A stretch of DNA of 24,208 bases from a virus. Taxonomy: Duplodnaviria > Heunggongvirae > Uroviricota > Caudoviricetes. Made by a program: the position numbers and the translations under genes. The notes beneath the pieces were generated by a model. That model was not told where the DNA came from, did no database searches, and saw only the letters and a program-made list of their open reading frames with translations. Below are positions 1 through 3,872 of the stretch, in pieces (within the stretch, counting starts at the first letter, position 1; each line of letters starts with the position of its first letter). The stretch spans positions 1 to 24,208 of IMG/VR virus record IMGVR_UViG_2529292882_000005. One strand, 5' to 3'.

Positions 1-325
1 TACGCTCACAGTATTCTTCCCAGAGTAGCTGCAGCGTCACGCATTTATTACGCAGTTCCCGGTGTACTGTAGCCCAGTCAGGCAGAGAGTGCTTCTTCAT
101 CTTAACCTGGGTCTGAAGGAACGCATGTTTTAGTTTTGTATCATCCCATCCTGTAGGTAAGGGCCACTGCTTTATGCCAAGTTGAGCCGCCCGATTAGCA
201 TATCTGGATACAACGGAAGGGGAGATTGCAAGACTACGACCAATTTGTCGATGGCTGAGTCCAACACCGTATTTAAGCCTAAGAATTTCTTTAAGTTTTC
301 TCATAGAAATTGGAACTGTTGGCAT
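1..325 (-). CDS. istA: IS21-family transposase IstA, N-terminal portion (gene continues beyond the left window edge)
   Basis: Minus-strand translation from ATG at 325 (alternative in-frame ATG at 304) reads MPTVPISMRKLKEILRLKYGVGLSHRQIGRSLAISPSVVSRYANRAAQLGIKQWPLPTGWDD...HRELRNKCVTLQLLWEEYCER with no stop before position 1. The HTH-like N-terminus and the VTLQLLWEEY segment match my memory of IS21-family IstA proteins. Absent from the ORF track because it is open at the window edge. Confidence 0.75.
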   Translation of the reverse strand, partial: MPTVPISMRKLKEILRLKYGVGLSHRQIGRSLAISPSVVSRYANRAAQLGIKQWPLPTGWDDTKLKHAFLQTQVKMKKHSLPDWATVHRELRNKCVTLQLLWEEYCER

Positions 326-1021: not shown

Positions 1022-1043
1022 TTCGAAAATCTCTGAATCACCA

Positions 1044-1070
1044 GGCTACGCATTTGCGTGGCCTTTTTTG
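1044..1070 (+). terminator. rho-independent terminator after ORF 641-1021
   Basis: ggctacgc-attt-gcgtggcc hairpin (8 bp with one G-U wobble) followed by tttttt (1064-1069). Confidence 0.7.
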
Positions 1071-1205
1071 TATCCGCGCCACGCCCGGCGCACATCAAAA
1101 ACCACAGAGCCTTTCAGGGGTGAGCTTACGGGATGGTCAGTGTGACTTTCTCTGTGGGCTGGTCACCCCCGGGCGCAGGCTCACCCACTAAAAGGAAAAG
1201 TCACG

Positions 1206-1631
1206 ATGTTTGGTATTTTCAAAAAGAAAACCCGCAAGGCCATTACTGAAGTAAAGAAAATGGAGAACCGCGACGCAGTGGAGGCGACCGTCTGGGGTGC
1301 GTATTCCATCGCATTCGCCGACGGCACCTGTGATGCGAAAGAAATCGCGGTGCTGGAGAAAACCATTGCAGCACTTCCTGCTTTTGCGCCGTTCTCCGGT
1401 GAGATTGCACAAATGAGTGCAAATATCCGCGCCCGTTATGAAGCGTCGCCGCGTTCTGCCAATGCCGAAGCTCTTCGTCAGCTGGCTGATGTTGCCGGTA
1501 CTGATGATGCAGTTAATGTGCTGTGCCTGTGTCTGGATATCGCTGACCAGGATGGCATTGGTCCGGATGAAGAAGCACAGCTCAAGAAAATTGCTCAGGC
1601 GCTGCAGTTGCCGCTGGAGCAGTACCTGTGA
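1206..1631 (+). CDS. TerB-like (tellurite-resistance TerB family) domain protein, 141 aa
   Basis: ATG at 1206 preceded by aaaaggaaaag SD-like sequence. Two copies of the A-x-ADG...E...L...I..AL pattern (SIAFADGTCDAKEIAVLEKTIAAL and LCLDIADQDGIGPDEEAQLKKIAQALQL) typical of TerB domains as I recall them. E. coli-like codon usage. Confidence 0.55.
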   Translation: MFGIFKKKTRKAITEVKKMENRDAVEATVWGAYSIAFADGTCDAKEIAVLEKTIAALPAFAPFSGEIAQMSANIRARYEASPRSANAEALRQLADVAGTDDAVNVLCLCLDIADQDGIGPDEEAQLKKIAQALQLPLEQYL

Positions 1632-1780
1632 AAAGTGCGCGCCTTGTGTTGGCTGCCATCCTGCTGTTTCTGGTGGTGGCGGTGGATTTCACCGGACGGC
1701 TGATGTCGGTGCTGGCAGATGGTGTGCTGGTGGCGATGGCGCTGGTTGTGCTCCGGCCTTTACTGCGCAAATCTGAATAA
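1628..1780 (+). CDS. small hydrophobic protein, 50 aa, two predicted TM segments (V/M-KSARLVLAAILLFLVVAVDFTGRLMSVLADGVLVAMALVVLRPLLRKSE)
   Basis: GTG start overlaps the TerB-like stop codon (GTGA at 1628-1631), suggesting translational coupling. Strong G/C third-position bias (CTG, GTG, GCG codons). Below the 60-aa cut-off of the ORF track. The overlapping listed ORF 1417..1776 is judged spurious. Confidence 0.4.
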   Translation: MKSARLVLAAILLFLVVAVDFTGRLMSVLADGVLVAMALVVLRPLLRKSE

Positions 1781-1828: not shown

Positions 1829-1853
1829 GGGCCGCTGGTGGCCCTTTTTTATT
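1829..1853 (+). terminator. intrinsic terminator immediately upstream of the lysis cassette (possibly preceded by a second hairpin at 1791-1826)
   Basis: gggcc-gctggt-ggccc stem-loop followed by tttttt attt. An upstream hairpin aaggc...gcctt is followed by ggggtgtttttt. Confidence 0.55.
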
Positions 1854-3674: not shown

Positions 3675-3872
3675 TTACGGATATGGATCTTCTTTTGCAT
3701 CACCCTGGCCGCTTAAAGCAGTCCATGAGTTTTTCGTATGCTCCTTAACGTTTCTGTTTGGGCAAGGTGGGAGGGATGTATTGGAGGATTTTGTAAAAGT
3801 GTATCCGCAATCATCACAGGAGTACGTCCCAGAAGATGTATCACTTCCATATGGAATGCCTGTTTTTTTCAT
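3675..3872 (-). CDS. small hypothetical protein (65 aa, Ser/Thr-rich, Cys motif CDDC...PPCP), moron-like
   Basis: ATG at 3872 with AGGA 7 nt upstream on the minus strand. Own terminator downstream. Lies in an AT-rich stretch (eyeball) between the lysis genes and cos, the position occupied by bor in lambda. Confidence 0.4.
   Translation of the reverse strand: MKKTGIPYGSDTSSGTYSCDDCGYTFTKSSNTSLPPCPNRNVKEHTKNSWTALSGQGDAKEDPYP

Follow-up and report, generated by a model that had tools for sequence, protein, structure and literature searches.

The DNA analysed here, hereafter the window, is a 24,208-nucleotide stretch of a virus of the class Caudoviricetes (IMG/VR record IMGVR_UViG_2529292882_000005, positions 1 to 24,208), and our subject is the two-gene cassette tciA–tciB (tciAB) together with the RNA leader that precedes it. 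The cassette lies in a lambdoid Escherichia coli prophage, directly upstream of a holin–holin–M15 endolysin cassette, and all of its parts are on the plus strand. The first gene, tciA (1206..1631), starts with ATG and encodes a protein of 141 amino acids that is predicted to be soluble and to adopt a TerB fold, with two acidic motifs of the D-G...E type; the second, tciB (1628..1780), starts with GTG and encodes a DUF3927 protein of 50 amino acids, predicted to form a two-helix membrane hairpin. The TGA stop codon of tciA and the GTG start codon of tciB share the letters GTGA, so that the two open reading frames (ORFs) overlap just as the first-pass annotation of this DNA had described.

A structured 5' leader of tciA, delimited by conservation and covariation, occupies 1072..1205 (model match 1059-1208), and terminator-like hairpins recovered by a consensus scan stand on both sides of the whole unit. 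The upstream hairpin (1043..1069; stem 1043-1064, 9 bp with 6 GC pairs and a TTTTTTG tail) sits directly 5' of the leader and closes a truncated ORF (641-1021), and alignments place an equivalent terminator 5' of the leader in most homologous loci. The downstream one (1829..1853), which the first-pass annotation had also called, consists of the hairpin GGGCCGCTGGTGGCCC (1829-1844) followed by a T-run; it lies between tciB and the first holin gene, and its sequence is kept in relatives. A consensus scan found no sigma-70 consensus promoter between the upstream terminator and the ATG of tciA, and no plus-strand ORF of at least 30 amino acids that could be a counterpart of the P1 gene tciC starts between the stop of tciB (1780) and the holin ORF.

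Identity and conservation of the tciA–tciB pair

It is near certain that the pair is tciA–tciB, an accessory cassette of two genes that was originally annotated in phage P1. In a translated search of GenBank phages, TciA of the window was 85.1% identical to P1 TciA, with 100% coverage of its 141 residues; the P1 record itself names tciA, tciB and tciC by homology only. Of 5,426 complete E. coli genomes, at least 155 carry the 801-bp stretch with the pair at full length and 570 show matches that are partial or more diverged; RefSeq labels the genes at the 155 full-length matches 'tellurite resistance TerB family protein | DUF3927 family protein | putative holin'. The novelty that the first-pass annotation had implied for the pair must therefore be given up, as the pair is already annotated in P1, PHROGs, Pfam DUF3927 and RefSeq. 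The name was assigned by homology in the P1 record, and the 'tellurite resistance' label then spread through annotation; what the present analysis adds is that TciB appears essentially obligate, that the cassette looks tied to lytic programmes and that its translation is probably gated.

Two observations concern the alleles of the pair. TciA of P1 is 85% identical to that of the window and TciA of P7 only 34%, so that P1 and P7 carry distinct alleles, and yet the C-terminal two-thirds of TciB are almost identical between P1 and P7, which points to a recombination joint inside the cassette. In addition, GenBank PP818812.1 (17447-18292), labelled 'Actinobacillus phage vB_Apl-pPE4', matches this E. 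coli prophage region at 96% nucleotide identity and has a TciA that is 100% identical, which is unexpected for a Pasteurellaceae host label.

TciA matched the Pfam TerB profile (PF05099) with 30.5 bits, above the gathering cut-off of 24.4, and PHROG 632 ('tellurite resistance', moron category) over its full length (E 1.3e-64). A fold search agreed with the TerB assignment of the first-pass annotation, giving an all-helical fold as in the solved TerB-family proteins 2h5n and 2ou3, whereas a single-sequence search of the PDB with TciA returned no TerB entry and only spurious PNPase matches (E ~0.02). Both predicted acidic motifs, FADGTCDAKEIAVLEK and IADQDGIGPDEEAQLKK, are present, and among 10 homologues of 33-88% identity their key residues D39, G40, E46, D116, E122 and L126 show no variation, with G117 nearly invariant; the basic N-terminus MFGIFKKK is conserved as well. 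TciB matched Pfam DUF3927 (PF13064) with 53.5 bits (cut-off 25) and PHROG 1470 ('TciB-like inhibition of cell division or resistance to colicin', moron category) with E 2.5e-24. It is as hydrophobic as the first reading had noted, with a grand average of hydropathy (GRAVY) of 1.40; DFTGR separates its two hydrophobic peaks, and both ends carry basic residues, a pattern that fits a hairpin of two transmembrane helices with both termini inside (N-in/C-in). Conservation in TciB is concentrated in three places: the turn keeps VDFT(G/S)R, the second helix LADG and the C-terminus WP/RP-x-x-K.

To describe the pairing, 176 loci with TciA relatives (the window, GenBank phages and IMG/VR contigs) were searched with profile hidden Markov models for both proteins. 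A TciB-like ORF starts between −30 and +200 nucleotides from the tciA stop in 175 of these loci, and no TciB without TciA was found among the 176. In a first-pass measurement the overlap of the two genes was 4 nucleotides in 75 of 89 pairs and 1 nucleotide in 11. The pairing is kept in P1, P7, lambdoid phages, phage Evi, the N4-like Salmonella phage SP-058, Erwinia jumbo phages and Pseudomonas phiK7B1, and it persists even where TciA is only 33-44% identical to that of the window; scans with Pseudomonas, N4-like and Vibrio TciA returned 1, 2 and 0 loci, so that the distant lineages are thinly sampled. TciB appears, from this co-occurrence, to be an essentially obligate partner of TciA. The tight coupling to a small hydrophobic partner had been described in the first-pass annotation, which had staked its reading on three points, and on all three the result was favourable: the TerB profile matches, the 50-amino-acid ORF is conserved and there is no match to a lysis family in Pfam or PHROGs.

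The single exception is Vibrio phage vB_VpaP-MS02 (378-1926), which has a TciA relative without TciB. Directly upstream of its TerB homologue lies a gene for a membrane protein of the TerC/Alx family, and the presence of this gene where TciB is lacking fits the idea of TciB as a membrane partner. At the other extreme, two independent database proteins fuse TerB to DUF3927, P0051 (196 amino acids) and P0246 (197 amino acids, 5 members, E. coli PA11), both fused through frameshifts at the gene overlap.

Both reading frames carry the signal of genuine genes. Measured against the window's own codon usage, the tciA and tciB frames scored +0.48 and +0.50 log2 odds per codon and the other frames were negative, and the median ratio of nonsynonymous to synonymous substitution rates (dN/dS) of tciA was 0.047, indicating strong purifying selection. 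That the 50-amino-acid frame is a chance ORF in GC-rich DNA is ruled out by its Pfam family, the 175 intact loci out of 176 and the codon signal in the correct frame.

A structured leader RNA upstream of tciA

The leader of about 130 nucleotides is better conserved than the genes it precedes: it remains ~80-87% identical where TciA identity has fallen to ~41-44%, and Erwinia jumbo phages retain it too. Five helices were assigned to it. At the 5' side, hairpin H0 (1076-1080/1087-1091) carries a conserved (A/T)CGC(C/T)C loop and is followed by the long-range helix H1 (1102-1109/1150-1157). In H4, an invariant CCUUU acting as an anti-Shine-Dalgarno element (1110-1114) can pair with the Shine-Dalgarno (SD) sequence AAAGG (1191-1195), and H2 (1118-1125/1179-1186) and H3 (1129-1138/1161-1171) stack on it. 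H1 crosses H2, H3 and H4, which implies a pseudoknot or, alternatively, a switch from one fold to another. In the Erwinia copy, the predicted centroid fold contains the same SD-sequestering stem.

The evidence that these pairs are maintained comes from compensatory change. RNAalifold, run on an alignment made with MAFFT only, recovered H0 and H1 with compensatory changes, and the diverged copy L076 has compensating changes in H0, H1, H2, H3 and the SD/anti-SD pair. Across 27 model-aligned leaders, 94.1% of cells were paired and 22 of 35 pairs had changed on both sides, compared with 9.5±2.1 pairs in shuffled controls (0/500 reached the observed value) and 5-9 in slid controls. Among 74 distinct type-B copies, 20 of the 35 pairs had changed on both sides vs 7.1±1.3 in shuffles (0/500), and H1, which lies outside the covariance model, alternates in these copies between AU, UA and CG at one position and between CG, AU and GC at another. 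For the nested helices, both counts come from model-fitted alignments of related sequences, and several pairs never vary. On this comparative evidence, the leader appears to be a structured cis-regulatory RNA whose base pairs are kept by compensatory changes above controls. Its conservation as mere recombination 'boundary' DNA, an explanation that we also considered, is insufficient given the compensatory changes in five helices across subtypes, although such a role may contribute.

The leader is closely tied to tciA and also occurs elsewhere. Of 120 exact-pattern matches in IMG/VR, 119 are followed by a tciA ATG 8-10 nucleotides later, and the remaining one lies at a contig end; a pattern that was too loose returned chance matches from unrelated phyla when run against genome contigs. 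Covariance-model searches, for their part, found diverged copies before other genes in the same prophage regions, namely genes for antirepressor-type proteins (KilAC/ANT, P22_AR_N, KilA-N and Rha), HNH-type proteins and proteins of no assigned function. The window holds one copy only, and the leader was not found in P1, P7, SP-058 or phiK7B1. No Rfam family accounts for it: Rfam 15 gave no match within 1070-1205 on the plus strand at E up to 10, nor did any of four further leader copies yield one at E up to 0.5, and with no ARAGORN or Rfam matches we reject a known riboswitch, a tRNA remnant or a small RNA. We found no annotation of it in GenBank phage records and no description in literature searches.

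Insertion-sequence data provide a further observation on the leader core. The GenBank records LC567818-LC567841 (PPompW / Stx2a phages) contain, at ~15.65 kb, the first ~62 nucleotides of a leader copy (the terminator, H0 and CCACAGAGCC), followed by an annotated IS110-family element, ISEc20, inserted inside the invariant leader core. This position suggests that the core is a specific target site of ISEc20.

Regulatory leaders that switch by sequestering the SD sequence are well known, among them translational riboswitches, the kinetic-trap leader of the phage MS2 maturation gene and the RNase III-processed lambda N leader. The tciA leader resembles them in its long irregular hairpin, which closes on the SD sequence directly 5' of the start codon, and in its upstream helix, which is transcribed first and is mutually exclusive or pseudoknotted with that hairpin; unlike them, it matches no Rfam family. 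It also differs from metabolite riboswitches in serving unrelated genes (tciA, antirepressors and HNH endonucleases), which would be unusual for a riboswitch. This lack of a shared function among the downstream genes inclines us towards a developmental or kinetic gate and away from a metabolite riboswitch, and candidates for what operates such a gate are translation from the nascent transcript only, RNase III processing and a phage-encoded factor.

We therefore put forward, as a proposition for which we see the chances as evenly balanced, that the leader at 1072-1205 represents an undescribed family of phage cis-regulatory RNAs that sequester the SD sequence, act as a portable translational gate on unrelated mobile accessory genes of enterobacterial phages and offer in their core a target for IS110-family elements. 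Such a gate would be a kinetic timer, a switch operated by a protein or small RNA, or a riboswitch for a signal of infection state. The leader matters more in this respect than the pair, which is already known and widely annotated: it is potentially a new part and, if real and new, a structured regulatory RNA that is abundant in the most thoroughly studied of bacterial genomes. If the proposition is true, it would control antirepressors, that is, genes able to trigger prophage induction, and it could serve synthetic biology as a context-independent translation gate.

Possible functions of the cassette in phage development

The position of the pair in different phages bears on when it acts. In P1, tciAB is located downstream of the C1-repressed ban promoters and upstream of ban itself, whose strand it shares, amid tRNA genes, and we read tciAB and ban as one lytic operon. 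In lambdoid phages the pair lies downstream of Q in the late region. Intact relatives of the window show the order replicative helicase, Q antiterminator, DNA methyltransferase, tRNA genes, a hypothetical gene of ~180 amino acids, tciA, tciB and holins, and phage JLK-2012 has Q, three tRNAs, tciA, tciB, yjhS, S, R and Rz, with a 1.85-kb gene between tciAB and S. Stx phages carry stx in the late-region slot in which JLK-2012 carries tciAB. The first-pass annotation had assigned the pair to a moron slot between the late regulator and the lysis genes; this holds in intact homologous prophages, but the late regulator is not visible in the window. There, Q and the tRNA genes do not stand next to the cassette because an IS21-family element has replaced the upstream DNA. 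The pair is also carried by N4-like phages (in SP-058, near dUTPase and a MoxR-like ATPase gene) and by jumbo phages, at the genome start beside tRNAs. Because of the C1-repressed ban position in P1 and the Q-dependent late region in lambdoid phages, tciAB looks like a lytic-cycle function.

We tentatively favour, over lysogenic conversion or lysis timing, the possibility that tciAB is a lytic-cycle, membrane-associated module of the TerB type for stress buffering or exclusion. TciB would be a two-helix hairpin in the inner membrane, kept at a constant ratio to TciA by the coupling of their translation, and would recruit or partner soluble TciA on the cytoplasmic side, in a parallel to ter operons, where TerB associates with TerC, a membrane protein. 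Such a complex would act in lytic growth rather than in the lysogen, buffering or guarding the inner membrane of the infected cell (its ion or proton-motive-force status) against premature collapse, and also against pore-forming colicins, superinfecting phage and membrane-targeting abortive-infection effectors; this guarding role would belong to the same class of phenotype as reported for ter operons. At the level of expression, the most stable fold of the leader (H4+H2+H3) would sequester the SD sequence AAAGG through CCUUU, whereas the competing 5' helix H1, which is transcribed first, would leave the ribosome-binding site free, so that translation of tciA is probably limited to a particular state or time window. 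Published work ties TerB to membranes and to phage and colicin phenotypes (10.1101/2022.05.11.491447; 10.1101/2025.09.30.679545; PMC4319500; PMC9603915), and the genome note on Pollock, an N4-like and presumably lytic phage, leaves the role of TciA open (PMC4319500).

Several points weigh against this proposal. TciA is only weakly similar in sequence to the classical TerB of ter operons, the Pfam alignment spanning residues 11-57 only, and the window holds no terC-, terD- or terE-type genes. The membrane topology of TciB is deduced purely from hydropathy, and the median dN/dS of tciB (0.42) indicates moderate selection, as is common for small hydrophobic proteins. In an AlphaFold model of the natural fusion P0051, the TciB part formed one continuous helix (pLDDT, the model's confidence score, 70-77), and no usable TciA–TciB interface was obtained; because MAFFT repeatedly placed TciB onto the ADG motif of TciA when the protein sets were combined, the alignment behind the TciA part of this model was a shallow one. 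P0051 and P0246 may themselves be genuine fused alleles or artefacts of sequencing, assembly or frameshift. Finally, a genome-wide CRISPR interference screen of P1 found tciA, tciB and tciC non-essential (PMC10695390), a result that shows only their accessory status.

Other functions were weighed against the same data. The pair might be a counter-defence decoy, in which TciA mimics or titrates host TerB-domain sensors such as those of Bunzi, Shango and Dionysus, or blinds membrane surveillance, and TciB provides placement at the membrane. TerB domains do occur in these validated defence systems, for which a survey of the membrane has been proposed (10.1101/2022.05.11.491447; 10.1101/2025.09.30.679545), the N4-like (presumably lytic) and jumbo carriers gain nothing by protecting a lysogen, and tciABC is among the variable regions of P1-like phage-plasmids, as expected of arms-race genes, in a survey that left its role open (PMC9603915). 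Nevertheless, neither TciA nor TciB matched any PADLOC-DB v2 defence model at E up to 1, which leaves the fold as the sole resemblance to the TerB proteins of defence systems, and the strong constraint on TciA (dN/dS 0.047) is unlike that of most anti-defence proteins, which evolve fast; we consider the decoy unlikely, if the most credible of these alternatives. Rather less credible is an ion or metal device, with the acidic motifs of TciA binding a divalent cation and TciB, through the intramembrane Asp of LADG, forming or regulating an ion path for phage replication. This would account for the invariance of D39, G40, E46, D116 and E122 (and near-invariance of G117), for the conserved D in the second TciB helix and at its turn, and for the metal-homeostasis gene of the TerC/Alx family that adjoins the TciB-less Vibrio phage homologue, given that TerC-family proteins are described as manganese exporters (PMC10197570). 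The argument is one from sequence motifs, however, and the Rfam search found no known metal-class riboswitch in the leader.

A lysogenic-conversion moron, in which the prophage-expressed pair gives its host tellurite or colicin resistance or superinfection exclusion, seems improbable to us. As in a classical moron, terminators stand on both sides of the cassette, and it occupies the same slot as accessory cargo in JLK-2012-type late regions, but there is no promoter-like site from the upstream terminator to tciA, the P1 genes lie downstream of C1-repressed promoters, and N4-like and jumbo phages carry the pair. Moreover, a lone TerB homologue without TerC, TerD or TerE is not known to confer tellurite resistance. 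Least probable in our estimate is a role in lysis timing, with TciB (together with TciA) acting as an antiholin-like or holin-modulating protein that sets the trigger time of the downstream holins. The pair does lie immediately upstream of holin genes, in the same direction, in the window and in many lambdoid relatives, and a small predicted membrane hairpin is what many holin regulators look like. However, a terminator separates pair and holin in the window, a whole gene intervenes before S in JLK-2012, and the adjacency is not kept in P1, SP-058 or the jumbo phages, so that the lysis-timing guess of the first-pass annotation does not generalize. Its companion statement, that the pair is not a standard lysis function, fits the profile searches: in Pfam and PHROGs neither protein matched a holin, antiholin or lysis-regulator family, the sole matches of TciB being DUF3927 and the TciB-like PHROG, and the true holins are the next two genes.

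Related systems and neighbouring genes

The closest known relative of the proposed module is the P1 cassette tciA–tciB(–tciC) (AF234172 70233-70929; PHROG 632, 1470), which shares with it the gene order, in which the TerB-like gene comes first and overlaps the small membrane gene of the DUF3927 type, as well as nearby tRNA genes and an accessory, non-essential status (PMC10695390). The differences are that the window pair lacks the third small gene, where P1 and LMessi carry an ORF of ~35 amino acids, that it lies in a lambdoid late region beside holins and not upstream of ban, and that it has a structured leader, which P1 and P7 are without; from this comparison, tciC appears not to be universal in the family. 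With the ter operon (terZABCDEF) it has in common the Pfam TerB family, a helical fold, duplicated acidic motifs and the pairing of a soluble with a membrane protein. It differs from that operon in lacking terZ, A, C, D, E and F, in a partner that is a 50-amino-acid hairpin and not the multi-pass TerC, in being located in a phage rather than a stress island and in a similarity too weak for a single-sequence PDB search; Ter genes were likewise not found in the homologous loci of lambdoid relatives. The defence systems Bunzi (BnzA), Shango (SngA) and Dionysus (DinB) also combine a TerB domain with membrane proteins in phage–host conflict (10.1101/2022.05.11.491447; 10.1101/2025.09.30.679545), but they are host-encoded, multi-gene systems with helicase, ATPase or pore-forming effectors, whereas tciAB is phage-borne and without a PADLOC match.

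The neighbours of the pair in the window are the truncated hypothetical ORF on one side and two holins and an endolysin on the other. Profile matches identify the latter as a Phage_holin_8 gene (1871-2263), a Phage_holin_3_7 gene (2253-2528) and the M15 endolysin (2525-2908), after which a lambda-like terminase follows. At the left end, positions 1 to about 511 are the end of the IS21-family element, with the N-terminus of its transposase on the minus strand (304..2; NF033546, E 9e-12) and terminal repeats at about 380-500. This element is found at ≥99% identity in about 2,000 E. coli records, and in the window it cuts the hypothetical gene of ~180 amino acids that precedes tciA in intact relatives, leaving the 641-1021 ORF as a remnant.

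Transfer RNA genes recur near the cassette. In 101 of 167 loci they are found on the tciA strand, no more than 1.5 kb 5' of the gene, mostly as Arg and Met tRNAs by ARAGORN, and in two of the loci (L005 and L006) RefSeq calls tRNA-Ile and tRNA-Arg at positions that match the ARAGORN tRNAs. As they also flank the cassette in P1 and in an Erwinia jumbo phage, the tRNA–tciAB association is a recurring one. On the 3' side, an IMG/VR prophage with JLK-type tciAB (L306, 10057-10223) has the Rfam small RNA STnc100 (RF02076, 101 bits) directly after tciB; the shorter tciB–holin spacer of the window gave no STnc100 match. Further downstream in the window, between the lysis genes and the terminase, a 65-amino-acid ORF with weak zinc-ribbon matches (3675-3872, minus strand) opposes the late operon. 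In a close relative of this prophage, from E. coli strain 'numer 3' (L005, 7178-8323), the second holin and the M15 endolysin are separated by an insertion with the A and B genes of heat-labile enterotoxin type II, which marks a second cargo slot in the lysis cassette.

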